In this document: positions 597 to 47,086 of the stretch, in pieces
Layout of the letters: every line of letters begins with the position of its first letter
How positions within the stretch are numbered: the stretch's first letter is position 1
Assembly (NCBI GenBank): GCA_964500725.1
Contig: CAZCNP010000001.1
Coordinates: 321,520-385,519, forward strand
DNA: 64,000 bases
Reading direction: 5' to 3'
Source of the DNA: an uncultured Gammaproteobacteria bacterium
Lineage (GTDB): Bacteria > Patescibacteriota > Microgenomatia > Daviesbacterales > UBA10151
The notes under the pieces: generated by a model
Database searches by the model: none
Seen by the model: the letters and a program-made list of their open reading frames with translations, nothing else
What the model was told of the DNA's origin: nothing
Translations under genes and position numbers: made by a program

Positions 597-644
597 AAGT
601 TATTGCCAACTCTCCTTATTAAATATACACTATTCATATAGATT

Positions 645-31400: not shown

Positions 31401-34371
31401 CTCTACTGGAGCTGGTGGAGGGGGTGGACTGGTAGGGATTTTAGATAATGGTAATGTTGGGATTGGCAACACCGGACCCTCTCAGTTATTCCAAGTAGGA
31501 CCCAATACTTCTGCTGGATCTTCTGCTATGGTATTTACCTCAGGGGGTAACTTAGGTATTGGCACAACTGGACCTGTTGGTAAGTTTGATGTTACTGATA
31601 CCTCCAACACTGGTGCCTCTTTCTCTCTAACAAATAATACTGCCACTACTATTGGAGCTGGAGTAAATACCTTGGGAGTTCTAGACCTCCAATCCACCTC
31701 TTTGACTACTGGTAACTTTATGAATATAGAATTAAATGCCCTATCTTCTGGAAAAGGTATTAATTTAACCTCTACTTCTACTGCATTTTCTACTGGATCT
31801 TTCTTAAACTTAAATTGGTCTCCTACCACCTCTACTACAGCTACAGGTGACCTAGTTTCAATTGGTATTGGAGTATCTGGAAATGTAGGAAACTTACTTA
31901 ATATTACAGATTCAGGTTCTTCTATCTTTGCTGTATCAGAATCCTCATTAACTACATCACTTCCTGCTAACTTTACTGCTGCTGGAGATGTGGCTATAGC
32001 TTATGATATTAACTTTACCAATCCTACTGCCTCATATGTTAAATCTGCTGCCCCACTATACTTACAAGCTGGAGAAACCTTTAACTCCTCAGACCTGACT
32101 TTGAAAACCTTTAACTCTGGTCAGGGAGTGTTTGATTTTGCAGGAGGAGCCAGTTTTATCCAGCCCCAAACCTGGAACTTCCCTGCTACCACTTCTATCA
32201 ATGCCTTAACATTTTCTGATTCAGCAGGCAATGATTTATTAAACCTGGATACTGCCAATACTAGGGTAGGAATAGGCACTTCTAATCCATCAGCTACTTT
32301 CCAGGTCAATGCCACCGGCACTTCTTCTTTTGTGGTTAACTCTTCAGGTAATGTGGGAATTGGAACTTCTACCACAGGTGTACCTTTGACTATCAGAAAC
32401 CTTGGCACCACCTCAGGAACTGCCTTAGTAGTAGATAGCGAAGGCCAGGTTTATAAAACAAGTTCTTCTTTAAGATATAAAAACAACGTTGCCAATTTAA
32501 ATAATAACTTTGCCAAAATTTTACAGGTTGCTCCCAAATCCTTCAATTATAAAGATACAGGAGCTGCTGATATAGGTTATATAGCAGAAGACTTTGATAG
32601 CTTGGGTCTTACAGATTTGGTACTTTATGATAACCAGGGCAGACCTGATAGTATTAAGTACGATCGGGTTGCCCTTTATGCTGTAGAAATATTGAAAAGC
32701 CAGAATCTCACCCTTAACAACTTAACTAATGCCTTATCTGTAATTGGTGGAAATGTAGGCATTGGAACCACCAATCCAACTGCTGCTTTGGATGTAGTTG
32801 GAGATACTAATATTATGGGGGTACTTTCTGTCAAAAACTCCTTGGGACAAAATCTATTCCAGGTAGATGCTTCTGGTTCTGCCAAACTGGCAGGAACTAT
32901 CACAACTGAGGCAGGAGCTTTTGATATAGCAGAAGACTATCAAGCTGAGGCAGGAATAGAAGCTGGAGATGTGGTTGCTATTTCGGAAGACAGCAGCGCT
33001 GATAACCCACAAGTAGAAAAAACCACCTCCTCCTACCAAAACAATGTCTTAGGTATTATTTCTACCAAAGCAGCCCTTAGACTTAGCTCAGGGTCTTCGA
33101 CCACCGACTCTCAACCTATCGCTTTAGTTGGTAGAGTGCCAGTCAAAGTTTCTACAGAAAATGGAGCTATACAAAAGGGAGATTACTTAACATCCTCATC
33201 TATACCAGGTGTTGCTATGAAAGCAACCAGACCAGGACAAGTTATAGGAAAAGCATTAGAATCATATTCAGAGACAGGAGTTGGCAAAATACTTATCTTT
33301 GTAAATATATCCTTTGCTGATCCAGGCAATTTCTTATCTTCCCTATCTTTGGATGATGAAGGCAATTTGATAATTCCTAAGATAAAAACTGCTAGTATTG
33401 CCCTGGATCCAAAAGTTGCCACAACGCAACAATTGGCACTCGACAATGACCAATTAACAAGCGCAGAGACCTTAAATGATAAGTCTCAAATGTCGAATGA
33501 CACTTACTATGATTTAGGCGGCAAGATTGCCTCGCTGGAGGAAAGAATTACTGAGTATGAAGAAAAGATTAAAGACTTAGAAGCTAAGGTAAATAGTGCC
33601 CCTGAGGCTACTTCTTCAGCAGAAATTAAAGATTTGGCTGATGAACTGTTAACCAGCTCAGAAAAATTGGTAGCAGAGGCCACCTCCTCAGCTACACCTT
33701 CGGCTGTCTTAGCAGATGAAACATTAAACTTAACTCCTCCTGAAGTCCTACTTAACCAGGCTTCTGCTGTCTTGACTGATTTGGAAGTTAAATCAGAAGC
33801 CACTGTTTCTGGACAATTAACTGCCTATAACTTAAATGTCCAAGACGGACTCAAATCTTTGGGAACAACCTCTTTGGGTAATACTACTATTGCTGGAGAT
33901 TTGACTGTTGATGGCACATTATCAATAGAAAATGGTAATGAGATTAATGTCTTAGGTACTCTCTACTTGCAAAAATCTATCCTGGCAACTGCTGTAGATA
34001 TCTTCAATGGCTTGGTAACTATAGATAATAAAGGTAATTTAACAGCTCAAACTATTATAGCTGAGGAAATAGTAACCACTAAATTGACAATTAATGCCAA
34101 GCCTAAAGAGGCTAGCTCCTCAGCTACTTTGGGCACTTCTACTAATGCCACCATTGGATCTGGTAAAATCCTTGCTGGAAAGACCAAAGTAGCCATATTT
34201 ACCAACCAAATCACTGAAGCTTCAAAGGTATTTATCACTTTGAAATCATCTAGCTTGGGTCAAACCCCTTATGTTGAAACTACCCTATCAGGCAAAGGCT
34301 TTGTAGTGAGCATTGATCAAACTGTTGGTAAAGATATTGATTTTGACTGGTGGATTATAAGCACACGATGA
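16417..34371 (+). CDS. Giant surface-fibre protein precursor (5,984 aa): N-terminal MerR/excisionase-like HTH, single TM, hundreds of GNVGIG-type fibre repeats, three inteins, internal peptidase-S74 intramolecular-chaperone domain, C-terminal coiled coil
   Basis: Single uninterrupted ORF. N-terminus LVKIAQASKLLGVHKDTLRRWEKAGKIKVVRDQKGDRLYD is an HTH; FYFMAAGFFLLLVLIGLGYI is a TM. Recurring 35-45-aa repeats carry the motif GNVGIG[TA]..P...L.V.G. Intein and S74 signatures are listed separately. Confidence 0.85.
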   Translation: MLKVNSSKKSLVKIAQASKLLGVHKDTLRRWEKAGKIKVVRDQKGDRLYDVSKLINSAPASQTSKVPTTEQLLKSASQHAQQSTLQPQLPALDYSALLDQTISKDNKQTGRRFYFMAAGFFLLLVLIGLGYIRVLSTQSKPQIITSLENKILAAITSQPLVKINADVKVRGSLSVSNDINGLAIATDSAGFTLTSENGKLTVVGDALLNQDLSSSGSPTFSSLNLSSTSNQLVFQSGGPAGTLTWTPTAARTITLPDTTTTLVGKDTTDTFTNKSISGSSNTFTNIPNSALTNKKITVTAGTNLTGGGDVELGSSITLSLKESPTFSGVVLLSDGTAAAPGLAFSNDTNTGLYRIGTDKIALITGGLATSGITIDSSGNLGIANNSPAYKLDVTGTANITSNTTIGGTLGVTGISTFSSTMGVSSGLSVGSTYSSLSPPTSGAIIEGNVGIGTSAPGSFALNVSGNTYLNGRLETSGNVGIANSAPSFTLDVVGTGRFSSLLNVLGNIGIGTSGAAGSALQVNGGGLFGWGTTSTALSSGAILGVNGNVGVGTTSPLANLHVVGQCVVGETKLKRRRRKKGKNGEWSDEYEDVEIKDIKEGDEILTLDESTGRFVPAKVNALKDMGIKEIFELTTATGKTIRTTGNHPYLALGVEHLALTSHDSASGVTGASLLNSTILSLTRGNKDHRIAVFIDAANLEKSVEKIGFKVHYKNLKRLIASLGSLDYIGYFTVATSSEQNVTLRQSLLRFGYNVVTKPLKLIKTAKGLKPKADVDVEITTEVMERKDDFDLMILFSGDSDFYYPIKLLQEKYGKKVIVISTRYSVSRELLKVADRYIDIAKLKGEIARGQKESPSFATGDSSFDESNLTTALQTISDILPFVKNLGKWTKVSGLKTGQMIAAVGKDNQPQFEKIASIKKVKREQVFDIEVEGTHNFVGNDIVAHNTFITGNVGIGAAFTTSGIVTPTNGLAVQGNVGIGTSTTNAALTVIGGITTTGNVGISNSAPSFTLDVVGTGRFSSDLTVSGTTFSASSAAGSFDSLTVGGGYGSTGVSISNAGVIQANGALTADGLITGSTGLTITGGVVSLNASSNNAVNINTGSSTGALTLGGGSGTVEVASTSWDISTLGAISGVTGITTSGGYTQSGTSENLFTGNVGIGVSATGAKLSLNGGAYIWPITTNIAAPNNGLAVYGRVGIGTTSPATNLHLIDTSGNTEIARFTSTTNSKDSYVQFNTTSSTSSMGLQLSSTAANSVGMRIDGSGNLSFHTGAASSSVMANNNKKMTIDTNGNVGIGSSASNGISAIQLFQVNGTSSSPFVVTSAGNVGIANSAPSFTLDVVGTGRFSSLLNVLGNVGIGTSGVAGSALQVNGGGLFGWGTTSTALSSGAILGVNGNVGVGTTSPLANLHVVGQCVVGETKLKRRRRKKGKNGKWIDEWEEVEIKDIKEGDEILSLNESTGEFIPRKVKGLLGMGMQEVYEILTEEGKTIQTTKNHPYLVDLSETAGTALHFIQKATFEYSERLGKEFYIDHLAGKKIKSKALNDTINFTHTGWNHFTEKSRSINELITRFFALPYAITVLSQASKVKIHEERKKPDMVVEYWIFEEIIEYALIRVVISAVNHGPKFFLSCSWLGTQAEGGILANKKELSLSQAVTPGRRRELVIPQLFTKLFIPKNVKNVKWVEVRNLTVGASIATISGWEKIVSIKNMGRKSTFDIEVAGTHNFLGNNIVAHNTFITGNVGIGAAFTTSGIVTPADGLAVQGNVGIGTTTTNAALTVIGGITSTGNVGIANSAPSYTLDVIGTGRFSSTLLANTFSSSEVTITGGTINNTSIGATVTSTGAFTTLSASGALAANGGITFDNATDTLGAFTAAGTINMNGNIITNIGATDTSFATTGALAITLDGADASGALSVSNASQTSDIFVAKDNTTAVFTIKDGGNVGIGFTSPSALLHLRQTGSGNAFYVEDQADDTSSPFVINADGNVGIANSAPSYTLDVVGTGRISSDLVVNGTTFSASSAAGSFDSLTVGGGYGSTGVSISNAGVIQANGALTADGLITGSTGLTITGGVVSLNASSNNAVNINTGSSTGALTLGGGSGTVEVASTSWDISTLGAISGVTGITTSGGYTQSGTSENLFTGNVGIGVSATGAKLAINGGAYIWPTTTAISAPNDGLAVYGNVGIGTTTPLANLHVVGQCVTGDTRLRRRKKKKNGEWSDEYEDIEIKDIQAGDQILSLNEKTGQFEPHTVLALKDMGIHQTFELITASRKSIRTTANHPYLIKQQKTRLSASSLTEFNADALYSGLSINTLPQNTNNVKSMTARSGTNVDLTGIEPANPDFSDPSVHQYQAHIKLLSHKWIKVSGLKPGMEIATINGWEKIAAIKKFAREQVFDIEVEGTHNFVGNDIVAHNTFITGNVGIGAAFTTSGIVTPTNGLAVQGNVGIGTTTTTNALTVAGNVNTTGNLGVGTSATGGYNLTVQGTTSITGAATFGSTGTFASTLTASNGLTLTTGALNLTSTSGQANLALTNNTNTFTVNGLFGIDTTNNRVGIGTTAPSAARLEVIGAGSVTGRTFWVTGSNLSSGLAVLDNGNVGIGISGPTASLDIVGTSYTTALDQSQTSTNGFYSSSIQAQSFTPSVTGPFMYADIKIQSGGGAPGNTALTLRSGEDVSGTVLATSTSVASLGSGWYRITFDNTPTLTAGQQYTIRYDRTSTNDWGIQGANPYSGGRFYGLGAWKTDDGAFKTYVYTTDTTLADAVKMANNYTSANSGAVLNITTAGIAGSYALRVNDDGTFTDTSPFVIDTTGNVGIANSAPSYTLDVVGTGRISSDLVVNGTTFSASSAAGSFDSLTVGGGYGSTGVSISNAGVIQANGALTADGLITGSTGLTITGGVVSLNASSNNAVNINTGSSTGALTLGGGSGTVEVASTSWDISTLGAISGVTTLNMSGAITAATASNTINGLIINSGALSGVTGITTSGGYTQSGTSENLFTGNVGIGVSATGAKLSLNGGAYIWPITTNIAAPDNGLAVYGNVGIGTTTTNAALTVIGGITSTGNVGIANSAPSYTLDVIGTGRFSSTLLANTFSSSDVTITGGTINDTTIGATITSTGAFTTLTSSGNTTLGTGASSVNTIGSTTTPGTLTLHGATTLDNTFTVSGANLTSLGGNLSFTGTAPSLTSGSSVLGIFAGGNVGIGTTSAMASSFNVNGNQVIGSSFIGGAAPTNGLAVQGNVGIGTTTTTNALTVAGNVNTTGNLGVGTSATGGYNLTVQGTTSITGAATFGSTGTFASTLTASNGLTLTTGALNLTSTSGQANLALTNNTNTFTVNGLFGIDTTNNRVGIGTTAPSAARLEVIGAGSVTGRTFWVTGSNLSSGLAVLDNGNVGIGISGPTASLDIVGTSYTTALDQSQTSTNGFYSSSIQAQSFTPSVTGPFMYADIKIQSGGGAPGNTALTLRSGEDVSGTVLATSTSVASLGSGWYRITFDNTPTLTAGQQYTIRYDRTSTNDWGIQGANPYSGGRFYGLGAWKTDDGAFKTYVYTTDTTLADAVKMANNYTSANSGAVLNITTAGIAGSYALRVNDDGTFTDTSPFVIDTTGNVGIANSAPSYTLDVVGTGRISSNLTIGGSLTSTGNLLPSADDTYDLGSSSARWQDLYVGPTSLNLVCTAGECGTARTWNIGVQESSGVAAAQGNLRIGLSSSRDFLNINTSGNLGIGTSNPGNLLTVSGGNIEISSASPQLIWTDTTAGQDAFGAIANSDYLEFMSGGTRNILVLAGATHANAGNVGIGTATPAFKLDVNGGINSGTSAGYSVGSWLGMSYAANGASYNLNLGGINASTWVGLGLFTSGTEKVRIDTNGALYSGNIGTSIANANLFVSGATSGNVGIGTTTPNTRLDVIGNGTYAADFMNGSVGIGTSSPQATLHVASAFTAVSDTGSTGGNLIIQGTDTTRDPTHGAALSFYLPATTAGGNPYVQARIIGAPDNSSNNNTSGRLIFQTRNNTSASFNNAMMIDSNGNVGIGTTGPNAKLDVIGGIRVTNTSSTNALVFGLANSNHYLKLYADTDTGISYIKNLSNYDIRLGHASSDDVIINSAGNVGIANSAPSYTLDVIGTGRFSSDLTVGGNLTVSGTTFSASGAAGSFDSLTVGGGYGSTGVTISNAGVIQANGTLTVDSTSTLTGAVSIGASNAALTFTGTTPSITSGSSVFGIFAGGNVGIGTTSTMGSTLNVSGNQVIGSSFIGGAAPQNGLGIQGNVGIGTTTATSYNLQVVGTIGSTSGITIDAGAGSSNATLTLAGRNSGTAHSASVFSNFNGGLNLKPATTGSDINVYLWNNATASTSNTMPLNFDLNATTDGKTTFAQIMGLSTDITSGAASGALSFYTKNTGSLKERMRIDLNGNVGIGTSAPFTALTGAFQVAPVSAPAAFFVGSTGNVGIGTTAPTNNLSVIGNVNTTGNLGVGTSATGGYNLTVNGTARISGNIGIGGTATFSNPTIFNNGITNNGVFSQTGQFLAGDGSAAAPSYSFTSSTGAGLWSPSSNNIALTTGTPTTTGTIKGISVDSSGNVGIGTSNPAGLLDIVKLGNDNPIYIDRYSTNNGHVPTIQFRTSQQNSLGNTATTISNMYGRLEWYGNDGNGFQRAAYIQAQQGSSTATDADLTISTGASGTIFMEGSSGNVGINNAAPVAKLHLTGAGITTGVNFLSTGAGGGGGLVGILDNGNVGIGTTAPGQKLDVVGTIKFGSGGYYSLGTDPTRLEIRNAANDSIALYTNGTRGLLMTGSQKVTVGGDISGGNSLFNVQGGTAIGSSYYLATAPTNGLLVEGNVGIGTTSPITKLDVSGGVGDTSSTDPQFSLSRWSSTGNNEVVKFRLMEQASGGTNFGVFTIQTKSTASAAESDSYYTNAFSITAAGNVGIGTTGPAVKLDVVGGGNYVDGLRLRYSALTNGWNFAQGTGGQLYFGYGSAASPTTMMLIDTNGNVGINNAAPVAKLHLTGAGTTTGVNFLSTGAGGGGGLVGILDNGNVGIGNTGPSQLFQVGPNTSAGSSAMVFTSGGNLGIGTTGPVGKFDVTDTSNTGASFSLTNNTATTIGAGVNTLGVLDLQSTSLTTGNFMNIELNALSSGKGINLTSTSTAFSTGSFLNLNWSPTTSTTATGDLVSIGIGVSGNVGNLLNITDSGSSIFAVSESSLTTSLPANFTAAGDVAIAYDINFTNPTASYVKSAAPLYLQAGETFNSSDLTLKTFNSGQGVFDFAGGASFIQPQTWNFPATTSINALTFSDSAGNDLLNLDTANTRVGIGTSNPSATFQVNATGTSSFVVNSSGNVGIGTSTTGVPLTIRNLGTTSGTALVVDSEGQVYKTSSSLRYKNNVANLNNNFAKILQVAPKSFNYKDTGAADIGYIAEDFDSLGLTDLVLYDNQGRPDSIKYDRVALYAVEILKSQNLTLNNLTNALSVIGGNVGIGTTNPTAALDVVGDTNIMGVLSVKNSLGQNLFQVDASGSAKLAGTITTEAGAFDIAEDYQAEAGIEAGDVVAISEDSSADNPQVEKTTSSYQNNVLGIISTKAALRLSSGSSTTDSQPIALVGRVPVKVSTENGAIQKGDYLTSSSIPGVAMKATRPGQVIGKALESYSETGVGKILIFVNISFADPGNFLSSLSLDDEGNLIIPKIKTASIALDPKVATTQQLALDNDQLTSAETLNDKSQMSNDTYYDLGGKIASLEERITEYEEKIKDLEAKVNSAPEATSSAEIKDLADELLTSSEKLVAEATSSATPSAVLADETLNLTPPEVLLNQASAVLTDLEVKSEATVSGQLTAYNLNVQDGLKSLGTTSLGNTTIAGDLTVDGTLSIENGNEINVLGTLYLQKSILATAVDIFNGLVTIDNKGNLTAQTIIAEEIVTTKLTINAKPKEASSSATLGTSTNATIGSGKILAGKTKVAIFTNQITEASKVFITLKSSSLGQTPYVETTLSGKGFVVSIDQTVGKDIDFDWWIISTR
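18112..19251 (+). mobile_element. Intein 1 (380 aa) in the giant ORF, carrying an NYN/LabA-like domain in the endonuclease position
   Basis: Starts CVVGETKL (block A). TTGNHPYL is block B (TxxH). VFDIEVEGTHNFVGNDIVAHN is block F/G, ending HN; the +1 residue is T (TFITGNVGIG). In frame: aa 566-945 of the host ORF. Confidence 0.8.
18478..18933 (+). other. NYN (LabA-like, PIN-related) nuclease domain embedded in intein 1
   Basis: IAVFIDAANL ... DVDVEITTEV ... LFSGDSDFYYPIKLLQEKYGKKVIVIS ... ADRYIDI. Clear paralogy to the free-standing NYN protein at 47173..47667 (AFIDASNI ... CDVDLTMDML ... LTGDGDFAPLL...IIIIS ... GDEHIDF). Confidence 0.7.
20650..21612 (+). mobile_element. Intein 2 (321 aa) with an unknown ~200-aa insert domain
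   Basis: CVVGETKLKRRRRKKGKNGKWIDEW...TTKNHPYL ... STFDIEVAGTHNFLGNNIVAHN|TFITGNVGIG; aa 1412-1732. The insert (20905..21500) contains PDMVVEYWIFEEIIEY and IDHLAGKK with no recognisable family. Confidence 0.75.
23002..23643 (+). mobile_element. Intein 3 (214 aa), mini-intein
   Basis: CVTGDTRLRRRKKKKNGEWSDEY...TTANHPYL ... QVFDIEVEGTHNFVGNDIVAHN|TFITGNVGIG; aa 2196-2409. No endonuclease-sized insert. Confidence 0.75.
23393..23461 (-). ncRNA. tRNA-like element antisense to intein 3: canonical acceptor stem, anticodon arm and T-arm, non-canonical D-arm
   Basis: Reverse complement GGGCCTG-GTACTGGTGTACGCT-CGGGT-CTGAGAA-ATCTG-GGTTT-GCGGG-TTCAATT-CCCGT-CAGGTCC-A. 7-bp acceptor with one G-U; T-loop TTCAATT; anticodon loop CTGAGAA. 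The D region can only form GTAC/GTAC with a 4-nt loop. Confidence 0.25.
23702..27270 (+). repeat. Intragenic tandem duplication: 1,196-bp perfect repeat (23702..24897 = 26075..27270), period 2,373 bp
   Basis: Identical nucleotide strings. Antisense ORFs 24285..24530 and 26658..26903 in the ORF track have identical translations. Both copies encode TNGLAVQGNVGIGTTTTTNALTVAGNVNTTG...GTGRISS. Confidence 0.85.
32455..32735 (+). other. Peptidase S74 / intramolecular chaperone auto-processing domain (as in phage endosialidase and tail-fibre C-termini), internal to the giant ORF
   Basis: SSLRYKNNVANLNNNFAKILQVAPKSFNYKDTGAADIGYIAEDFDSLGLTDLVLYDNQGRPDSIKYDRVALYAVEILKS matches the S-x-R-x-K-x-N-[IV]...Y.YK.....IG.IA.[ED] pattern. 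About 550 further residues follow it, including a coiled coil (SLEERITEYEEKIKDLEAKV). Confidence 0.6.
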
Positions 34372-34859
34372 ACACAGATCATAAAAAAAGCATGATTCTC
34401 ACGGATAAAAAACAGATCAACACCGATCAGTCTACATCCGCTTTAAATCCGCCTAAATCCTCTTCAGGATTATTATTTGCCGACTTAACTTACAGGATTC
34501 GGGGAGCAATATTCACAGTTTACAACCAGCTAGGGTTTGGTCACAAAGAACAAGTTTACCAAAAAGCTTTAGAAAAAGAATTAATAGAAACTAAACTACC
34601 TTTTAAAAGAGAAGTTAGTTTAAATGTGAAATATAAAGATGAAGTGATAGGAAGCTACAGACCTGATTTTGTTGTAGATGATAAAGTAATTGTTGAGTTA
34701 AAAGCTGTTGAGTTTATGCCTAAATCTTTTGAAACCCAGTTAATCCATTATTTAAAAACTACTGGTTATCAATTAGGACTATTGGTTAACTTTGGTTCTA
34801 CTAAGTTAGTTATCAGAAGATTGCTATGGACAGGTCAGAAGGGAGATTCTCACAAATGA
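34350..34859 (+). CDS. GxxExxY-family protein (PD-(D/E)xK-like small nuclease-fold protein); probable start at M15 (34392)
   Basis: LTYRIRGAIFTVYNQLGFGHKEQVYQKALEKEL...YRPDFVVDDKVIVELKA contains the GxxExxY signature and a D...E.K triad. The ORF-track start overlaps the 3' end of the giant ORF. Confidence 0.6.
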   Translation: MDYKHTMNTDHKKSMILTDKKQINTDQSTSALNPPKSSSGLLFADLTYRIRGAIFTVYNQLGFGHKEQVYQKALEKELIETKLPFKREVSLNVKYKDEVIGSYRPDFVVDDKVIVELKAVEFMPKSFETQLIHYLKTTGYQLGLLVNFGSTKLVIRRLLWTGQKGDSHK

Positions 34860-37800
34860 AAAGCAGCCTAACACGGATTTCTTACTATCTGCGTAAATCA
34901 GTTCTCAAATCAGCGTTTATCCTGTCTGCCATACTGGTAGCAGGAGGAGGAATTTTTCTCTATGGTTACTTCCATTCTAAGTCTGCTTCTGCTGCCTGGT
35001 TTGATGAAGGCTGGGCATACAGAAAGGCTGTGACTGTGACTGTTACTTCCTCCTCTTCTGATATTACCAACCTGGAAACTTTAATTACCGCAGATACCTC
35101 TGCCTCCGGCAGATTTCAATCTTCCTGCCAGGATTTAAGATTTACCAACACTAATGGTAAACTTCTTCCTTACTACATAGATTCAGGCTGTACTACCTCC
35201 TCCACCAAAATCTGGATTATGCTGGATTTAGTTCCTAAAAACACCACCACTTATACCCTGTATATGTATTATGGCAATCCCACAGCCTCAGCTGCTTCTG
35301 ATTCCACTAAATTTAGACTATTTAACGGCTTGAAGGGGTATTGGAAGATGAATGATAACGTTTCCGGAGATGCAAAAACTTTAACAGACGCCTCAGTCAA
35401 TGCTAACTCAGGCACCACCTATTATGGAGCCAACACCACTGGAATGGATTGTACCATCACTGCCAAATATGATAAAGGTTGTACTCTGGATGGGACAGAT
35501 GACTATGTCAGTTTAGGAAATCCAGCAGCCCTGCAAATCTCTACTGATATCACCATCAATATTTGGGTTAAACCCACCTCAGGATCATATATTATCTCAA
35601 GGCGTGGCTGGAACATCCTTCTGGGTCAACCGCCAGCATTTGAAACTAGAAACGCCGGCGATACAGGCTGGGATACAAATGCCACCGCCACCTCTACACT
35701 CCCCACTGATTCCTGGTCCATGGTTACTGCTGTCTATAGCACAACAGATCAAAAAAAGTATATCTATATCAATGGGGTACAAGAAGGAAGTGCTGCTAAA
35801 ACAGACGGCAGTATGGGAGATACTACTGCCAGAAATATCTATCTCGGCCAATACATAGTCGGTTCCCAATGGTATAACGGTTCAGAAGACGAGCTTAGGA
35901 TTTATAACCGGGCTCTTTCACAATCAGAAATCACCCAGCTTTATCAAAACCCAGGCAATATTGCCACCTATGTTGACGGTATCAGCAAACCTACCACCTC
36001 CTTTGCCACAGAAGAACAAGGCCCAGGGCCAATAGGTTACTGGAAATTTGATGATGGGCAAGGATCAACTGCCCAGGATTCTACCTCCAGCAACTATGAT
36101 GGAACCATCACTGGAGCAACCTGGCAGACAGAAGATAAATGTATCTCTTCAAAATGTTTATATCTTACCTCAGCTACAGATAGGGTAACTGCTGGCTCAA
36201 GCAATAATTTAAATATCACCTCGGGTGATGCTACTTACCAAACCTGGGTAAGACTTACCGCTGCCACCTTTTTGGATGGCTCTACCAACTGGACTTTATT
36301 TAATAACGAAAGCTACCAGGCTTCTGGAATGACTATTAGAATTGATGGCGGAACTGGAAAATTAATGTACAGATCCAGTCAAGCAGCAGCCTCTACCACC
36401 TTTACCACTACTTCAGCCCCTATTGCTTCTAATAATACCTGGTATCACATAACTGCTGTAAAATCTGGCACCACAATATCTTTCTATGTCAATGGCAGGC
36501 TTATTCAATCAGGAACTATCACCAACCCTGTAACCACTGCCAATGCTTTTACCATTGGTTCAGCTGTAGGTGGATCACAGTCAGTCAGAGGTTTTATGGA
36601 TGATGCTAAAGTCTATAACTTTGCCAGAACTCCCGCACAGATCTTGCAGGATTATGCCTCAGGTTTGGCTAATGCAGGAACTAAACAAGGCTCCTCGGCG
36701 GTACTCGGAGCAAGTACTGAAAAATGGCTGTCTGATGGGTTAGTTGGATACTGGAAAATGGATGAAAGTTCTGGAAATGCTGCTGATTCTTCCGGCAACG
36801 CAACAACTTTAACTAACAACAATATCACCACTTTTGCTGCTGGTAAGTTTGGGAATGGATCATCATATAATGGAACAAGCCAGTACTTCAGCACTGCCTC
36901 AACAATTTCCGGTGTTCAGTCAATAGCTTTCTGGGTATATCCCACTTCCACTACAGATAATTACATTAATCTTAATGGGTCAACTTACATAACTTCATCA
37001 TCCGGTACTGTCTCGGGAACCGGAATAACCTCCCCCAGCATTTATGTCAACGGAACCCTTAATGGCACAATTACTGCCAGTGCCTGGAATCATGTAGTAA
37101 TCACCACCGCCACATCTGTATCTGCATCTGTATTTGAAATTGGGCGGGCAAATAGCTCTTATCTTTCCAACACCAGCAAAATGGATGAGATCCGCGTCTA
37201 TAATCGTGCTTTATCATCCGCGGAAATCTCTTCATTATATAACTGGGCTCCTGGACCATCTGGTTATTGGAACTTTGAAGAAAGAACAGGGACTTCTACT
37301 TATGATACTTCAGGAGGAGGAAACACAGGCACCATCACCAATTCTACCTGGAATACCGGCAAGTTTGGAGCAGGGCTGTCTTTTGATGGGAACGGTGATT
37401 TTGTAAATATCCCCCAAACTACTACCTTAGACACCCCCACAGGTACCATTTCTATGTGGGCTAACTTTAATGATCTAACAGATAATGGGTATTTATGGAG
37501 CCAGAATGTTGATGAATGGAACATTTATAATAATGGCACCCAGCTAAAAACCTATTACGATAGTACTCTCGTTCATAGCTATACCCCAACATTTACAAAT
37601 AACCAGTGGGTTCACCTTTCCTTTACCTTTACTAAAGGAGGCACCTGTTACTTTTATGTTAATGGGGTTCAAGTAGCCAGTAATACCTGTTCCTCTACTG
37701 CCCCTACCCTATCAAACATTCATATAGGAGCAATGAGCAGCAACAACACATATTCTTTTAATGGAAAACTTGATGATGTTAAAGTCTACAATTATCAAAG

Positions 37801-39877
37801 GACTCAAAAACAGGTAGTCCAGGATATGAATGCTGGACATCCTGCAGTGGGCTCCCCGGTGGGATCACCAATCGGGCACTGGAAATTTGATGAAGGAGCA
37901 GATAATACTTGCTCAGGTGGAACAAATGATACCTGTAACTCTAGTTCCCAGGGATCAACTTTAGATGGAGCTTCAAGCGGTGCCACCTGGTCTCAATCCG
38001 GAAAATTCGGCCGGGCCTTATCTTTTGACGGAACTGATGACGTAGTAACAATTACTAACTCTAATCCCATAGATATGGATACCAGTTTAGCCAATTTCAC
38101 TTACTCTGCCTGGATCAATGCTACTGGCGCAGGGGAAAATAACGTGGGACAAATACTGCAAAAAGGCGCTAGCACTTATCTTAGGGTGGATAATCCATCA
38201 GGAAGTAATTTGGATGTTGAGGCAAATCTAGACTTAGCTACAACAGATGCCAATGTAAATGTTTCTGCTCCTATCACCACCAATACTTGGCATCAAATTA
38301 TAGAAACATGGGATGGAACAACTTTAACTGTCTATATAGATGGGGTGAATAAAGGCACTGGAACAGGATCTGGGGCAATATCATCAGATGCCAACAATTT
38401 ATTGATTGGAGGGACAACTACTGCTAACTTTGCCGGCACAATAGATGAATTCAAGGTTTATAATTATGCCTTAACTGCTGATGAGGTAAAGACAGAATAC
38501 AATCGTTCATCGTCAGTGGTTCTTGGTTCATTATCAGATAATTCCAGCTACCAAACCCAAGCTGCTAATCAGGAATATTGTGTCCCAGGAGACACTACCT
38601 CCTGTGCTGCCCCAGTTGGCAGATGGGATTTTGAAGAAGGAGGTTATAACGGTACTTCAGGTGAGGTTAAAGATAGATCAGGTAATGGTTATAACGGTAC
38701 TTATAATGGAACTCTAACTAATCTTTCAGCTCCTGGCAAAGCAGGTAAGGCAGGAAACTTTAATGGCAGTAATAATTATGTCCTGGCTAGCGATAATGAC
38801 ACCTTAAGCTTTACTGATAAAAAAATGACTGTCTCTGCCTGGATTAAAGGCAGCGCTTTTGGAGATAACAACGGGATTGTTGTCAAAAGGGCATCCAGCA
38901 ACTTTGAATATGGATTTTATGTATCAGCCAGCAAGCTAAGCTTCAATATTTGGACCTCTGCCGGGGCATCTGTCTGCAGCACAGCGGGAAGCGCTACTCT
39001 CTCAACCAACACCTGGTATTTTGTCACAGCGGTTGCCGACGGAACCAACTGCCTTCTTTATTTAAACGGGGCGCGGGATGGCAACGCGGGTACTGTTTCC
39101 GGAACAGTAACCAATGGAACAGCCGGAGTATATATTGGCTATGACAACAGCGGAGTTTCCAGATATTTCAATGGCCAAATAGATCAAGTCAGCATCTATA
39201 ACTATGCCAGAACTGCTGCACAAGTTGCCTGGGATTATAACAGGGGCAAGCCTGTAGGACACTGGAAATTTGATGAGTGCCAAGGCACTACTGCCTATGA
39301 TTCTTCCCCTTCGGCAGGCTCAGGGCAAGCAGGAAATAATGGAACTATTACTATTGGAGCCTCTGGAGAAGATACTGTTGGAACTTGTACTACCTCCTCT
39401 ACTGCCTGGGGCTCTGGAGTAACTGGCAAAAGAAATTATTCTCTAAGCTTGGATGGCACAGATGACAAAGTAACAATAGGTACAGCTATCAATGGGGTAC
39501 AATCTATAACATTTTGGGTCAAACCATCCACTAATACAGACTCCTTTATCGATCTTGACGGAGGGACTCATTATATTACTTCCTCCTCTGGAACAGTTTC
39601 TGCTACTGGTTTTTCCTCACCTACTATTTATGTGAATGGTATCTCAGGGGGAACAATCACTGGAGCAGCCTGGAACCATATCGTAGTTACAACAGGCACA
39701 TCCTTCAACACGACCAGCAGCATGACTTTTGGCTACAAAAGCGCAGCTACTGCAGATTATCTAAATGGTCAAATTGATGATGTCAGGGTCTATAACTATG
39801 CCCTCACCCTCACTCAAATCAAGGAAATCATGAATGATGGAGCTATCAGGTTTGGCCCAGCAACAGGAGCACCATAA
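34826..39877 (+). CDS. Large (1,683 aa) membrane-anchored protein with an N-terminal DUF2341-like domain and at least 6 LamG-like (concanavalin-A-like lectin, Laminin_G_3) domains
   Basis: TM helix SAFILSAILVAGGGIFLYGY. DEGWAYRKAVTVTV...LETL...DLRF is DUF2341-like. The repeated motif [DE][DE][IVL][RK][VI]YN[RY]AL[ST]..[EQ][IV] (LRIYNRALSQSEITQLY, DEIRVYNRALSSAEISSLY, DDVKVYNYQRTQKQV, DEFKVYNYALTADEV, DQVSIYNYARTAAQV, DDVRVYNYALTLTQI) marks the LamG C-terminal strands. The true start may be the M at 34856. Confidence 0.65.
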   Translation: MDRSEGRFSQMKSSLTRISYYLRKSVLKSAFILSAILVAGGGIFLYGYFHSKSASAAWFDEGWAYRKAVTVTVTSSSSDITNLETLITADTSASGRFQSSCQDLRFTNTNGKLLPYYIDSGCTTSSTKIWIMLDLVPKNTTTYTLYMYYGNPTASAASDSTKFRLFNGLKGYWKMNDNVSGDAKTLTDASVNANSGTTYYGANTTGMDCTITAKYDKGCTLDGTDDYVSLGNPAALQISTDITINIWVKPTSGSYIISRRGWNILLGQPPAFETRNAGDTGWDTNATATSTLPTDSWSMVTAVYSTTDQKKYIYINGVQEGSAAKTDGSMGDTTARNIYLGQYIVGSQWYNGSEDELRIYNRALSQSEITQLYQNPGNIATYVDGISKPTTSFATEEQGPGPIGYWKFDDGQGSTAQDSTSSNYDGTITGATWQTEDKCISSKCLYLTSATDRVTAGSSNNLNITSGDATYQTWVRLTAATFLDGSTNWTLFNNESYQASGMTIRIDGGTGKLMYRSSQAAASTTFTTTSAPIASNNTWYHITAVKSGTTISFYVNGRLIQSGTITNPVTTANAFTIGSAVGGSQSVRGFMDDAKVYNFARTPAQILQDYASGLANAGTKQGSSAVLGASTEKWLSDGLVGYWKMDESSGNAADSSGNATTLTNNNITTFAAGKFGNGSSYNGTSQYFSTASTISGVQSIAFWVYPTSTTDNYINLNGSTYITSSSGTVSGTGITSPSIYVNGTLNGTITASAWNHVVITTATSVSASVFEIGRANSSYLSNTSKMDEIRVYNRALSSAEISSLYNWAPGPSGYWNFEERTGTSTYDTSGGGNTGTITNSTWNTGKFGAGLSFDGNGDFVNIPQTTTLDTPTGTISMWANFNDLTDNGYLWSQNVDEWNIYNNGTQLKTYYDSTLVHSYTPTFTNNQWVHLSFTFTKGGTCYFYVNGVQVASNTCSSTAPTLSNIHIGAMSSNNTYSFNGKLDDVKVYNYQRTQKQVVQDMNAGHPAVGSPVGSPIGHWKFDEGADNTCSGGTNDTCNSSSQGSTLDGASSGATWSQSGKFGRALSFDGTDDVVTITNSNPIDMDTSLANFTYSAWINATGAGENNVGQILQKGASTYLRVDNPSGSNLDVEANLDLATTDANVNVSAPITTNTWHQIIETWDGTTLTVYIDGVNKGTGTGSGAISSDANNLLIGGTTTANFAGTIDEFKVYNYALTADEVKTEYNRSSSVVLGSLSDNSSYQTQAANQEYCVPGDTTSCAAPVGRWDFEEGGYNGTSGEVKDRSGNGYNGTYNGTLTNLSAPGKAGKAGNFNGSNNYVLASDNDTLSFTDKKMTVSAWIKGSAFGDNNGIVVKRASSNFEYGFYVSASKLSFNIWTSAGASVCSTAGSATLSTNTWYFVTAVADGTNCLLYLNGARDGNAGTVSGTVTNGTAGVYIGYDNSGVSRYFNGQIDQVSIYNYARTAAQVAWDYNRGKPVGHWKFDECQGTTAYDSSPSAGSGQAGNNGTITIGASGEDTVGTCTTSSTAWGSGVTGKRNYSLSLDGTDDKVTIGTAINGVQSITFWVKPSTNTDSFIDLDGGTHYITSSSGTVSATGFSSPTIYVNGISGGTITGAAWNHIVVTTGTSFNTTSSMTFGYKSAATADYLNGQIDDVRVYNYALTLTQIKEIMNDGAIRFGPATGAP

Positions 39878-39920
39878 TATGGTTCCTCCTTGGATGATGG
39901 CAGGCTGAGTTTACGAAGCC

Positions 39921-40211
39921 ATGAATCCATCTATTCTATGGTATAATACCATCATGAAACAGTTTACTTTTAGAACTATTATTCAAAAAGATGGTAAGGG
40001 CTACCATGGTTTTGTACCATCTCTTCCAGGATGTCATACTTATGGCAATACCATAAATGAAGTGAGAAAAAATATCAAAGAAGCGGTGGCGGGTTGGATT
40101 GAAGCCACTTCTGAACAAGGATGGAATATTCCTTCAGACGAAGGAATAGAGACTATAGAATCCATCCAAATAACGCTTCCCAATCCCAAAGCTTCCTTTG
40201 TCTATGCCTAA
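39921..40211 (+). CDS. hicB: HicB-family antitoxin (UPF0150); probable start at MKQFTF (39954)
   Basis: MKQFTFRTIIQKDGKGYHGFVPSLPGCHTYGNTINEVRKNIKEAVAGWIEA. Confidence 0.65.
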   Translation: MNPSILWYNTIMKQFTFRTIIQKDGKGYHGFVPSLPGCHTYGNTINEVRKNIKEAVAGWIEATSEQGWNIPSDEGIETIESIQITLPNPKASFVYA

Positions 40212-40431
40212 AATTCCAATTATCAATGGAACAAAGCTCGTTAAGATTTTAAAAAAGAAAGGTTTTGTTTTAAATAGAATTCGAGGCAGTCACCATATCC
40301 TCATTCACCAAGAAAAACAGATTACTGTTTCAATCCCAGTCCATAAAAGCACAACCTTAGGCAGAGGTATTACTCTGGCTATCATAAAGGATGCGGGGAT
40401 CACTACAGAAGAATTCCTGAAATTACTTTAA
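40198..40431 (+). CDS. hicA: HicA-family mRNA-interferase toxin (YcfA-like)
   Basis: KILKKKGFVLNRIRGSHHILIHQEKQITVSIPVHKSTTLGRGITLAIIKDAGI; overlaps hicB by 14 nt. Confidence 0.65.
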   Translation: MSMPKIPIINGTKLVKILKKKGFVLNRIRGSHHILIHQEKQITVSIPVHKSTTLGRGITLAIIKDAGITTEEFLKLL

Positions 40432-40543
40432 TGGCCAAATTGATTATGTCAGAATATATAACTATGCCCTAACAGCTGCCCAGGTTAAAGGGATCATGAA
40501 CGAAGGAGCTGTCAGGTTTGGCCCTTCCACCGGTTCGCCATAA
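40431..40543 (+). pseudogene. Orphan 3' fragment of a paralogous LamG gene (encodes NGQIDYVRIYNYALTAAQVKGIMNEGAVRFGPSTGSP*), abutting the hicA stop codon
   Basis: About 80% nucleotide identity to 39763..39877, the 3' end of the intact LamG gene. Its reading frame is intact, but no upstream gene body exists. Confidence 0.7.
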
Positions 40544-40572
40544 CTCCTTTGAAAAAGTGTTAAGATGAAAAT

Positions 40573-40835
40573 ATGAATGTAATTTTCTTTAACCCTAAAA
40601 TAAAAGATAACTTGTACTCTTTGGACAAGACTCCGCTCGACAAATGCCTTCGATTAATCGATCTTCTCAAGATGTTTGGGAATAAGCTAAACATGCCATA
40701 TTCAAAGAAAATCTCACACAATCTATACGAGTTGCGCATCCGTGGACAACAAGAAGTCCGCATAATCCCAAAAAACTCCTCAAAAAGAAATTGAAACTGC
40801 ATTAGCCAAAATCTCCATCTTGACAACCACATAAC
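40573..40835 (+). pseudogene. HigB/Gp49-like (RelE/ParE superfamily) toxin pseudogene, frameshift or internal deletion
   Basis: Frame 1 gives ...LYELRIRGQQEVRIIPKNSSKRN*. The family C-terminal hallmark QKTPQKEIETALAKI is encoded immediately after, in another frame. The middle RIFYF...HGF segment is missing. Confidence 0.5.
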
Positions 40836-40855
40836 GTATATGTTATATATAGTAT

Positions 40856-41140
40856 ATGAATAAATTTCAACCTATCCCATTTGAAGATGTTTTAGCAGAA
40901 GCCCTAAAAGACCCTGAGGTAAAAAAGGGGTATGATGCTCTTGAGCTGGAGTTTAGCATTATTGAACAGGTTATCAAAAAAAGGCTGGAAAAAGGCTTAA
41001 GTCAAAAACAGCTGGCTGAAAAAATTGGCACAAAACAGTCAGCCATCTCAAGACTGGAAAGCGGCAATGCCAACCCCTCGGTAGCTTTTCTGGATAAAAT
41101 ATCAAAGGCTCTGGGCAGCAAACTTCAAATCTCAATCTAG
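40856..41140 (+). CDS. XRE-family HTH antitoxin (HigA-like)
   Basis: LSQKQLAEKIGTKQSAISRLESGNANPSVAFLDKISKALG is the XRE HTH; it follows the toxin pseudogene. Confidence 0.65.
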   Translation: MNKFQPIPFEDVLAEALKDPEVKKGYDALELEFSIIEQVIKKRLEKGLSQKQLAEKIGTKQSAISRLESGNANPSVAFLDKISKALGSKLQISI

Positions 41141-41155
41141 CAATTAAGTTAAAGT

Positions 41156-41932
41156 ATGAAAAAAATCTTAATTATTTTTCTTTTATCCAGTCTAGGTTTT
41201 TTTGTGCTAACAACTTCTGCTTATGCTCAAGCCATCTCTTCTGGTGCAACTTATACCTATAAAATAGATGATACTAAAGCAGTTGATGGAGATATTTTAA
41301 CCATGTCTGATAAGGGCTTAGTTAGGGCTAATACTCCTTATACTGGCAGTATTTTTGGTGTGGTGCAAAACGATGCAGTGATAATAATTGAGCTGCTTGA
41401 CGAAGGCGGCCAACCAGTAGCTAGGTCTGGTATTGCCAAAGTTAATGTCACAAATGCCAATGGCCCAATTAAAAAGGGCGGTCTTATCGCTGTCTCTACT
41501 ACCCCAGGAAAAGGCCAACGGGCTGATAAAGCTGGGTATGTGCTGGGAACTGCTCTGGCTGATATGAATGAGGCTACTGGGCAAATCCCTGTAGCTTTGG
41601 AAATCAAATCCTATGATCTTTCCACTACCCTTAACTCAGCTACAGCCAATAGATTCTTAAAATCACTTGACGGTATTTTGCTCGCCAGCACAGAGGACCC
41701 AGAAAAACTTTCCCAACTTGTCAGGTATGTTGCAGCAGCAATTATTGTGCTGGGAGCTTTTGCCATTAGCTTTTTTACCTTTTCCAAATCTATGGCCAAC
41801 TCTGTTGAGGCAATTGGACGAAACCCCTTAGCCAAAAATTTTATCTTTTCTTCCCTGGTAATCAATATTGTTATTACTGTGGTTGTTTTGGGGGTTGCCC
41901 TGGCTGCTGCTTTTATTTTAATTAAGTTTTAA
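41156..41932 (+). CDS. Secreted/membrane hypothetical protein: signal peptide and a C-terminal two-helix membrane hairpin
   Basis: Signal peptide MKKILIIFLLSSLGFFVLTTSAYA; TM helices AAAIIVLGAFAISFF and FIFSSLVINIVITVVVLGVALAAAFILI. Confidence 0.4.
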   Translation: MKKILIIFLLSSLGFFVLTTSAYAQAISSGATYTYKIDDTKAVDGDILTMSDKGLVRANTPYTGSIFGVVQNDAVIIIELLDEGGQPVARSGIAKVNVTNANGPIKKGGLIAVSTTPGKGQRADKAGYVLGTALADMNEATGQIPVALEIKSYDLSTTLNSATANRFLKSLDGILLASTEDPEKLSQLVRYVAAAIIVLGAFAISFFTFSKSMANSVEAIGRNPLAKNFIFSSLVINIVITVVVLGVALAAAFILIKF

Positions 41933-45421: not shown

Positions 45422-45823
45422 ATGAAATGCTGGGGAAAAGCTCATGAACTTTCACAAGAAATATTGCTTAAACAAATTAGGTTGTTGTCATTAAAATTAG
45501 GCAGATCGCCCACTAGGCGGGAGTGCAAATATCATACAACTTGCCAAAGACATTTTGGATCATGGAATAACGCTTTAATAGCAGCTGGCTTAACTCCACA
45601 TCGTTCCCTAAATCAACGTATGTATAAAAGACGTATCTGCATTGCTAGAGATGGCCATATTTGTAATTCAGTCTCGGAATTAATAATTGATAACTGGCTC
45701 CATAAACACAACATCACTCATCAAAAAGAAGCACCCTACCCTAAGGGAAAATTTGTTGCTGATTGGGCTATTGCTACAAATACTCTAGTTGAATATTTTA
45801 GTAAGGAATTGAGAATAACTTAA
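45422..45823 (+). pseudogene. Remnant of a zinc-ribbon plus Vsr/DUF559-like (PD-(D/E)xK) endonuclease gene, truncated at both ends
   Basis: The in-frame upstream sequence YPLKYCQYCGNRCSLNRNYCS has no start codon (stop at 45356). The core CNSVSELIIDNWLHKHNITHQKEAPYPKGKFVADWAIATNTLVEYF resembles the DUF559/Vsr motif. The C-terminus is cut by the overlapping recombinase gene. Confidence 0.45.
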
Positions 45824-47086
45824 AATAGCCTTCTTATTTAATTCCATCTCCTTCTTAATAGCTTCTAACTGGTCATCAGCTTCCTTTAGTTTCTTATCTA
45901 AACCCTTTAGATCAGCACTAAACACTCCTTTTATGTAGCTATCAGTCTCACTTCTTAATAAATCCTTTGTCTTCTCAATCTTGTTGTCTAAATTCCGCCT
46001 TATTTGTTGTAAGGACCTTCTTCTGCTCTCAAGCTCTAACTCCTTATCTCTAATTACATTCCTCATTTCATCCACATAGTGGCTGTAAACTGCTTTAGAG
46101 GTGAACTTATTATCCTTTAGGAACTCACAAACAAAATCAACTATTACATGGGCTCTAATTGACTTGCCATATAATTTACAGTCAGGATTATCACATCTGT
46201 AGTAAAAGTAATTAGTCAAACCTTTTTTATTTTGCTTCGGGGTTATACCTGCTATCATGTTCTCTTCACAATCCCCACAAATCACTGCTCCCCTCAGTAA
46301 ATCAGCCTGTATAGTGCCTTCTGCATTGGCTCTGAGCCGATTCTTGAATGCTCTTTCCATATTGGAGAATTTATTTATCTTTAAGAATTCGTCTACTGTG
46401 ACCATTGGCACAAAGTCGTAAATCTCAGTTAAGTCAACAAATTGCTCACCGTATTTGAGTACTCCTGTATAAAATGGATCCTTAAACATCTCCGAAATTC
46501 TACTTCTGCCCCATTTGTAGACTTCATGCTTATCTCCTGTTGAATCCACTGCTCTGGTGAAACCATTGTCATTGAGGTACTTCATAACTACTTCTTGGGT
46601 TATTCCATCTAACCTCATCTTCCAACCCGTTTTTAGAAGAGTAAAATTATCACCGTCTGGTCTTAGGAACTTATTAATATCTTTGTAATAGCCATATTTT
46701 GTTCTGCTTAGGTATTTTCCTTCTTCAATACTCCTTCTAATACCTCGTTTAACATTGTCACTTAATTGGTCTGAGTATTGTTTACTTAAAACGAAGGCTA
46801 TTCCTAAAAGCATTTTCCCAGCTGTATTATTTTGAAAGGTGAAACTAACAAAATGCAGATCCTTTATTATTTGTTTATCTAATAAATCAATAACTTCACC
46901 ATTTGAGCCTACCACCTGATTATCTGCCAAATTTTGTGCAGGTTGTTGATCCTGCTGGGATTGTTGACTATTGTTGGTATCTGTTGACTGGCTATTGTCT
47001 GACTGTTGAGGTTGAGAGTTATCACCTTGAGAAGCTAAACTTGAGGCTAAATCTGTTAAATTATCTTTCTGAATTTTGTCATCCAT
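45785..47086 (-). mobile_element. Large serine recombinase gene missing most of its N-terminal catalytic (resolvase) domain; replaced by S/Q-rich low complexity
   Basis: Only the end of the resolvase domain is present (DLHFVSF...GKMLLGIAFVLSKQYSDQLSDNVKRGIRRSIEEGKY). It is followed by the recombinase domain (YLSRTKYGYYKD), the zinc ribbon (CGDC...YYRCDNPDC) and a coiled-coil tail. The N-terminal 60 aa are SQGDNSQPQQSDNSQSTDTNNSQQSQQDQQ; no catalytic-Ser motif. Confidence 0.6.

Follow-up and report, generated by a model that had tools for sequence, protein, structure and literature searches.

How did a toxin–antitoxin (TA) cassette come to lie between two copies of the 3′ end of one and the same gene? 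The question was raised by a 64,000-nucleotide (nt) stretch of DNA from an uncultured bacterium (assembly GCA_964500725.1, contig CAZCNP010000001.1, positions 321,520 to 385,519 of the forward strand; the whole stretch is referred to as the window below), in which a LamG-repeat surface-protein gene was followed by a hicBA TA pair and then, from the hicA stop codon onwards, by an orphan copy of the LamG 3′ end. Chromosomal TA pairs move horizontally, usually without mobility genes, and the route by which they enter and leave genomes is an old loose end. The sequence after hicA was best read as the former LamG 3′ end, displaced from its gene and predicted to be untranslated. With slightly better than even confidence, we take it that the LamG gene was entered at its 3′ end by a module, namely a small selfish cassette together with a replacement LamG end, and that the end in use until then was displaced; this module probably spreads by homologous recombination on the conserved tail.

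Two LamG gene ends flanking a hicBA cassette

The LamG gene (34856..39877, forward strand), the host of the insertion, encoded 1673 amino acids (aa) from the ATG at 34856 (longest open reading frame [ORF] from 34826), as it was also called in same-strain contigs, and its product displayed seven Laminin_G_3 stretches (Pfam, 1.3e-130) plus DUF2341. A representative-library search, which ranks by summed repeats and from which orphan tails are thus not countable, showed that a large family of LamG proteins of about 1500 to 1800 aa genuinely ends in this 40-aa tail; the LamG tail was therefore a conserved, multi-copy DNA target.

Two copies of this 3′ end were present on the forward strand: (i) the end in use (repeat copy 1, "E*"; 39756..39877), which was in frame with the gene body, ended in TAA, and is the proposed replacement end arriving with the cassette, and (ii) the orphan end (repeat copy 2; 40422..40543), which comprised 40 sense codons plus TAA and is the proposed earlier, displaced end. 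They aligned without gaps at 91 of 122 positions (74.6% nt identity; blastn E = 4e-18 within the window), and 28 of the 39 aligned residues were identical. An earlier sequence-only reading of the window had reported hicBA with a LamG-end repeat directly after the hicA stop codon (40429..40431), and all these elements were recovered as ORFs, Pfam matches, and alignment; the identity that it had put at about 80% over 113 bp was about 75% when measured, and the similarity extended three codons upstream of the limit then given (NYF versus DYL), overlapping the hicA stop. Both C-terminal peptides that it had quoted were exact, and the orphan frame was intact as claimed, running open from a TGA (40418..40420) as far as a TAA of its own (40541..40543). 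The orphan tail had no start codon, was absent from the start-codon ORF list, and lay in the +1 frame relative to hicA.

Elsewhere in the window, no further copy of the LamG tail was present apart from weaker copies of an internal LamG-domain motif (36581, 37754, 38426, and 39164), and no other gene-end repeats were found. The region 38999..41200 was 100% identical in seven independent assemblies from other samples, and the two-copy layout was therefore not an assembly artifact. No Rfam family was found at the locus, nor any DNA or RNA structure in the tails or a convincing terminator after the orphan. Exact-protein look-ups with HicA and with a 258-aa neighbor recovered the same clonal strain only, with no cassette-free variant among the hits.

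Between the two ends lay a 59-nt spacer (39878..39936), which began with TAATATG and opened a 9-codon ORF only, and then the conserved hicBA unit, both read on the forward strand. The left edge of this unit (39937..39953) contained an extended −10 element (TG at 39939-40, TATAAT at 39942..39947), which was read directly from the sequence and was not listed by a consensus promoter scan that requires a −35 element. The antitoxin gene hicB (39954..40211; longer ORF from 39921) encoded 85 aa, as it was also called in contigs L001 to L006, and represented a short form with no match to a DNA-binding domain (HicB_lk_antitox 6.4e-11, 42.9 bits, cut-off 27; UPF0150 2.2e-8). The toxin gene hicA (40204..40431, 75 aa) overlapped hicB by 8 nt, and its TAA (40429..40431) formed the right edge of the cassette; HicA matched HicA_toxin (2.8e-17, 63 bits, cut-off 27), shared 80% aa identity with HicA of contigs L013 and L016, and had a GSHH motif kept in four of four aligned homologues. 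Given these adjacent, overlapping genes, the pair is predicted to belong to the HicAB type II TA family. It resembled known members in its two Pfam families, antitoxin-first order, 8-nt overlap, and own promoter, so that the proteins were ordinary, whereas the packaging between two host gene-end copies was different.

Nucleotide homology to L013, L025, and L026 began at 39937 and ended at 40430. The resulting 494-bp shared unit was sharply bounded, contained hicB and hicA only and no transposase, and displayed 72 to 77% nt identity to L013, L016, L025, and L026, where it stood in unrelated contexts. The cassette had no match in phage and plasmid collections, and viral contigs contained only distant HicA relatives (37 to 40% identity).

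Divergence of the two copies

The 31 nt differences between the two copies were distributed 9:2:20 over the three codon positions (p = 5e-4), the Nei-Gojobori ratio of nonsynonymous to synonymous divergence (dN/dS) was 0.07 with dS of about 2 (saturated), and 11 of 39 residues differed, while 200,000 simulations of 31 random substitutions gave P = 2.5e-5 for 11 or fewer aa changes. This combination of codon-position bias, low dN/dS, and few aa changes indicates that each copy was a real gene end for most of the divergence: both would have functioned as protein ends while nearly all of it accumulated, and the orphan would not be a decayed in-place duplicate. The earlier proposal that the orphan was a genuine LamG C-terminal coding end agrees with this evidence of protein-level selection. 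The divergence of the two copies was as deep as that between different genera.

As for which copy was native, the tail of the cassette-free relative L110 was identical to the orphan at 96 of 123 positions and to the used end at 88 of 123 (17 versus 9 discordant sites, p = 0.17). A search with the LamG body retrieved proteins under 500 aa only, with domain shuffling, and no clean orthologue tail was assignable.

The same packaging at other hicBA loci

HicA scans provided 89 further loci, in many of which direct repeats lay close against the cassette. When 300 nt on each side were compared (local score of at least 38), 14 of 60 hicBA cassettes displayed flanking gene-end repeats, whereas the shifted pseudo-cassettes used as controls did so in 2 of 233 cases (Fisher p = 5e-9). 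The repeats were ends of neighboring genes: 3′ ends of genes for a class-V aminotransferase, AcnX, and an RNA methyltransferase and 5′ ends of Cas6b and DUF357 genes. They ranged from 35 to 122 bp in length, the target genes were unrelated among loci, and the pooled differences between repeat copies were distributed 37:20:75 by codon position (p = 1.5e-8). A six-frame protein-level repeat search around hicBA recovered nothing beyond the DNA search, with repetitive proteins inflating the controls.

The closest parallel was found in L013, where hicBA was about 80% identical to that of the window at the aa level but was placed between a 260-aa gene and mreB, flanked by a stranded MreB 3′ end (4866..4959) and the MreB 3′ end in use (5451..5544). 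These two copies displayed 12 nt differences and no aa difference over 31 residues; the 59 cassette-side nt were identical, and the terminal 35 nt held all the differences and were as diverged as between genera. Such a mosaic could have been left by a recombination event that broke within the repeat or by subsequent gene conversion. The stranded end occupied the very position of the MreB end in the cassette-free genomes, namely the window itself, L011, and L015 (empty sites); MreB tails were saturated at synonymous sites, so the native-versus-imported comparison in L013 was uninformative.

In L013, L048, L104, and L086 alike, the stranded copy matched the used copy exactly on the cassette side and had diverged from it farther away, a pattern that would be left by a crossover inside the repeat during lateral transfer; it was absent from the window and three other loci and is not usable as a general argument. 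Some repeat pairs were nearly identical throughout (95% in L104, 100% in L028).

Two further loci were of note for the size of the repeat or of the insertion. In L040, hicBA lay between two 611-bp flanking copies (1..609 versus 1632..2242; 89% identical), far longer than the other repeats. In L016, a 40-nt repeat (630..669 versus 1663..1702; 85% identical) enclosed hicBA together with an AdoMet-decarboxylase-like gene beside mscL; the flanking-repeat footprint thus extended to larger, two-gene insertions.

Stranded LamG tails and cassette arrays

A profile of the two 40-aa LamG tails retrieved short ORFs only, which represented stranded LamG tails in other metagenomes. Five contigs displayed the following organizations: (i) LamG, an NYN gene, a tail, and an IVP gene in L105; (ii) LamG followed by NYN, IVP-like, unknown, GIY-YIG, Gp49 plus HTH, GIY-YIG, and 51-aa genes, interleaved with nine tails of 13 to 39 codons each, in L108; (iii) a tRNA, a tail, and IVP in L111; (iv) two tails, a RelBE-like pair, a tail, and a Y1 transposase in L115; and (v) a partial gene, HicB, HicA, and a tail starting at the hicA stop in a JGI contig, the second instance of hicBA with a LamG tail. 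LamG gene ends were thus a hot spot at which cassette arrays formed.

The cassette genes of L105 and L108 began 0 to 13 nt past the stop codon of the preceding tail, which suggests that the cassette units may consist of a tail plus the cassette following it; the TAATATG at the start of the window spacer was a tight stop-start junction of the same type. The minimal unit common to the nine L108 tails was GAVRFGPSTGAP*, and ATGTCTAACGGGGACCAG was found in identical form upstream of three stranded tails (5097, 6194, and 7549), at the same tail position; these junctions hint at a site-specific cassette sub-family. A GIY-YIG gene in L108 was bracketed by a 13-bp inverted repeat (5922..5934 and 6192..6204; CCCCGTTAGACAT / ATGTCTAACGGGG).

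The window itself contained a second cassette right behind the orphan end: a frameshifted Gp49/HigB-like toxin remnant (40573..40834, forward strand; Gp49 5.3e-8 on a 73-aa ORF, with the remainder in another frame) and an intact HTH (HigA-like) antitoxin gene (40856..41140, forward strand; HTH_3 3e-17). The order tail, then Gp49 plus HTH, was also present in L108, and the window HTH displayed 45% identity to the L108 HTH located between two tails. This HigBA-like pair was an older, decaying cassette and, if units consist of a tail plus its cassette as suggested by L105 and L108, the window would be a two-cassette stack: the used end plus hicBA, then the orphan plus Gp49/HTH.

The arrays also bear on two suggestions of the sequence-only reading. 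It had proposed the conserved 3′ ends as recombination handles for cassette exchange among LamG paralogues. The handle idea gained broad support from the tail arrays, the second hicBA-plus-tail contig, and the mosaic repeat of L013, from which the mechanism would follow by inference, but the exchange was not confined to LamG paralogues. It had also suggested that the same fragment in relatives, with no full-length paralogue anywhere, would favor an ancient functionless relic. Such fragments were common, and they looked like serially displaced ends rather than one ancient relic; the test does not discriminate.

Proposed mechanism and rival explanations

The proposal builds on the observed architecture, its statistical recurrence, and the coding-type divergence; the identity of the imported copy, the recombination route, and the origin of the first duplication at a new target gene are the inferred parts. 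A module consisting of the replacement end (39756..39877), a short spacer, and self-promoted hicBA (39937..40431) would have been inserted between the LamG body and its former end, and, the replacement end being in frame, the LamG gene would have stayed complete. Once between two gene-end copies, the cassette could, after DNA uptake, pass into a relative that lacks it by homologous recombination of the ordinary kind, with the gene body as the homology arm on one side and the stranded tail as that on the other, since the structure would amount to a simple insertion relative to the cassette-free allele. In the recipient, the imported and native ends would differ at synonymous sites, and repeated events would stack cassettes, each parted from the next by a displaced tail. 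Addiction to HicA/HicB would penalize loss of the cassette through recombination between the repeats, and the divergence of the repeats would lower such recombination. For nuclease cassettes (NYN and GIY-YIG), cleavage of empty tails could make the process true homing. A site-specific or homing component is possible for these cassettes: L108 displayed three identical junctions and the window contained an NYN domain nested in an intein. This nested domain, together with the NYN gene being the first cassette after LamG in both L105 and L108, suggests that NYN may serve these bacteria as a homing nuclease.

Several observations weigh against this proposal. The hicBA toxin is a predicted RNase, not a DNA endonuclease, and nothing in the 494-bp unit accounts for the first insertion or for a duplication of 35 to 122 bp at new targets. 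Three quarters of the hicBA loci had no flanking repeat, and among the relatives found none was both close and cassette-free, the nearest sharing about 60% aa identity in the neighboring 258-aa protein. The tail-plus-IVP unit of L111 had no LamG gene upstream, and no older tail followed the HigBA-like cassette of the window. The greater closeness of the orphan to the L110 tail was not significant at the discordant-site counts given above, and the differences between the window repeats were evenly spread, with none of the crossover mosaic seen in L013, L048, L104, and L086.

The best surviving alternative, though an unlikely one, would be a Campbell-type single crossover, in which a circularized foreign fragment containing a LamG tail and hicBA recombined with the resident tail, so that the copies would be hybrids or else the orphan would be imported and the used end native. 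The product expected of it is precisely a cassette with a diverged (homeologous) gene-end copy on each side, and the restriction of the repeats to gene ends is accounted for as well, because an internal fragment would break the gene. The zero spacing between the hicA stop and the tail in two contigs looks as if hicBA and the tail had traveled together; L111 had a tail joined to a cassette with no LamG gene, and a competence gene (Competence, L013) was present in relatives. Single crossovers would nevertheless be needed on only 35 to 122 bp of diverged homology, and the tight coupling between tail stop and cassette start in L105, L108, and L111 fits a tail that precedes its cassette. The stranded copy in L013 lay at the native position beside the native neighbor, although a hybrid copy would too, and the tail of the relative L110 was slightly nearer to the orphan than to the used end.

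Integron-like site-specific capture, in which the last 13 or so codons of the LamG tail would serve as the attachment site for a recombinase or homing nuclease, was considered improbable. The unit shared by all nine L108 tails and the three identical junctions at one tail position would be expected of it, NYN and GIY-YIG nuclease genes were frequent cassettes, and the window intein held an NYN domain in the place of the homing endonuclease; yet no integrase or recombinase adjoined any array, none being found among the ORFs and Pfam matches around the window locus, L105, L108, L111, and L115, and the only recombinase-like ORF of the window stood 5 kb off with no catalytic-domain match. The tails had no attC-like fold, folding no better than shuffled sequences (z = 0.65, 0.19, 0.04, and −0.70), hicBA displayed the same layout at unrelated target sequences with repeats of different lengths, and the tail junction positions varied among the window, P0128, L105, and L108.

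Lower still stands the simplest account given by the sequence-only reading, namely that a second LamG gene once lay in tandem here and lost all but its last 40 codons, either by deletion or through overwriting by hicBA; we regard it as very improbable. The breakpoint would have to coincide with the exact edge of a conserved cassette, and the same layout recurred at the MreB, class-V aminotransferase, AcnX, Cas6b, and other genes, where tandem paralogues are unexpected. L108, with its nine tails each separated by a small cassette, would require nine tandem paralogues, each cut down to its tail, and the sole tandem LamG ORF pair in a relative (L110) was a frameshift split of one gene. These points speak against a lost second gene even though coding-type divergence is what a paralogue would show, LamG genes were multi-copy in these bacteria, and the first half of the orphan resembled the end of the penultimate LamG domain (81% over 63 nt) more than the end of the last one.

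Duplication in place at insertion followed by neutral decay, which would make the orphan an ancient functionless target-site duplication, is scarcely credible: direct repeats hugging an inserted element are a classic insertion footprint and near-identical pairs did occur (L104 and L028), but only 2 of the 31 window differences fell at second positions, the aa changes and dN/dS were as low as given above, L013 had 12 differences with no aa change, the codon-position sums for the window, L013, L105, and L108 were 17:7:52, and a model with selection on the used copy only, which expects about 45% third-position and 27% second-position differences, was rejected at roughly p = 1e-4 (our own estimate, not a computed value).

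Comparison with known systems

The proposed displacement of a gene end by a module carrying its own end was compared to known systems. In fungal mitochondria, mobile ORFs (mORFs) consist of an endonuclease ORF that brings in a foreign copy of the C-terminus of its target gene, the native one being left downstream (PMC3630166), and the two copies at Glomus atp6 displayed 63.5% nt identity versus 91% aa identity (PMC3630166). The mORFs of Allomyces macrogynus atp6 and of Glomus atp6, atp9, cox2, and nad3 shared their anatomy with the window: a gene body, an in-frame C-terminal piece (39756..39877 in the window), a small ORF (hicBA), and a stranded second copy of the C-terminus (40422..40543), which in mORFs is the native one. 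They also shared the signature of low nt but high aa identity, with copies that differed mainly at synonymous sites, as expected of different origins (75% nt identity, the 9:2:20 distribution, and dN/dS of 0.07 in the window; 12 nt versus 0 aa differences in L013). An endonuclease cargo that drives homing was lacking in the window, where the cargo was hicBA with a predicted RNase toxin, as opposed to the LAGLIDADG or GIY-YIG DNA endonucleases of mORFs; sister LamG-tail loci carried predicted NYN and GIY-YIG nuclease genes. Further differences were the host, here a bacterial chromosome of the Candidate Phyla Radiation (CPR), the arrays of up to nine displaced tails, and homing, which in the present system is a possibility for the nuclease cassettes. 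By analogy, the window layout is best read as a putative bacterial, TA-carrying counterpart of fungal mitochondrial mORFs.

Replacement 3′ ends are also borne by integrative elements: phage 21 and e14 in Escherichia coli icd and the islands in tRNA and tmRNA genes bring a surrogate 3′ end and form tandem arrays with repeated partial 3′ ends. They likewise keep the target gene intact, leave the displaced end as a direct repeat, and generate repeat arrays by serial integration. Such elements contain their own tyrosine or serine integrase and a fixed att core, whereas the unit described here was about 0.5 to 0.7 kb in length with no recombinase, and its targets and repeat lengths varied by locus, the targets being unrelated.

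The orphan arrays of cdiA and rhs, whose modules are believed to be exchanged by homologous recombination within a conserved segment, similarly show a large surface- or secreted-protein gene followed by 5′-truncated 3′-region fragments interleaved with small genes. The orphans of these contact-dependent inhibition (CDI) and Rhs systems contain variable toxin domains after the conserved segment, with the cognate immunity genes next to them. Here, the repeated piece was instead the conserved extreme C-terminus plus stop (13 to 40 codons with no variable domain), the next genes started at their own ATG after the tail stop, and the interleaved genes were independent selfish cassettes (TA, NYN, GIY-YIG, and IVP).

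Chromosomal integrons commonly carry TA cassettes as cargo, and they too stack small, mostly single-gene cassettes at the promoter-proximal end, parted by a recurring sequence. The separator in the present arrays was, in contrast, a protein-coding gene end under codon constraints, and neither IntI/attI nor attC-type hairpins were found at the loci named above. Transposons and insertion sequences were likewise poor matches, with no transposase in the unit and repeats of 35 to 122 bp diverged at synonymous sites. In the literature library searched, no account was found of TA cassettes packaged with a duplicated end of a gene, nor of arrays of this kind in these bacteria.

The window, the 14 of 60 hicBA loci, and the LamG-tail arrays point to a concrete, testable route for TA pairs: a cassette packaged with a spare end of its neighbor gene would insert harmlessly within that gene and be carried to relatives by homologous recombination. 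A mechanism so far known only for the endonuclease ORFs of fungal mitochondria would thereby be extended to bacteria and to non-nuclease cargo, many tiny "hypothetical" ORFs of metagenomes would be explained as stranded gene tails, and LamG gene ends in these uncultured bacteria would be flagged as hot spots of gene flux. A wider generalization is offered tentatively, as possible rather than likely: in CPR bacteria and some archaea, conserved coding gene ends might serve as platforms that stack selfish cassettes with surrogate ends and with no integrase or transposase of their own, LamG tails forming integron-like arrays and NYN/GIY-YIG cassettes representing a homing form, with NYN as an unrecognized homing nuclease. 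If true, gene-end platforms would be a general, so far undescribed route for chromosomal TA cassettes between genomes.

Genomic neighborhood and other features of the window

The names of homologues placed the organism in Candidatus Daviesbacteria, within the CPR. In L013 and L015, the 258-aa gene came immediately after the counterpart of a giant gene (16417..34371 in the window), with convergent mreB next in line; the intervening block of the window (34372..41155), composed of a PD-(D/E)XK_3 gene, LamG, hicBA, the orphan end, and the HigBA-like pair, was therefore lineage-specific. The PD-(D/E)XK_3 gene (34368..34859) overlapped both of its neighbors, and no direct repeat flanking the whole 6.8-kb island was found.

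The cassette-free relative L110 had the order giant gene, small ORF, LamG, terminator, and tRNA, with no cassette after LamG. A single frameshift at about 7987..8001 split its LamG gene into ORFs of 2163 and 393 aa, and its last LamG domain joined pieces from different window domains, indicating domain shuffling at the conserved NGQIDDVxIYNYALT motif.

The giant ORF (16417..34371, 5984 aa) contained an intein at 18037..19296, with the Pfam Intein_splicing match split across residues 48 to 405 of the translated segment and an NYN domain (1.6e-23) nested inside, in the usual place of the homing endonuclease; the protein apparently contained several inteins. Farther downstream, an HNH_repeat protein gene (45422..45823, forward strand; homing-endonuclease-associated repeat, 1e-14) overlapped the end of a large-serine-recombinase-like ORF (45785..47086, reverse strand), which had only Recombinase and Zn-ribbon matches and no catalytic-domain match; together (45422..47086) they may be the remains of an integrative element, located some 5 kb away from the hicBA locus.

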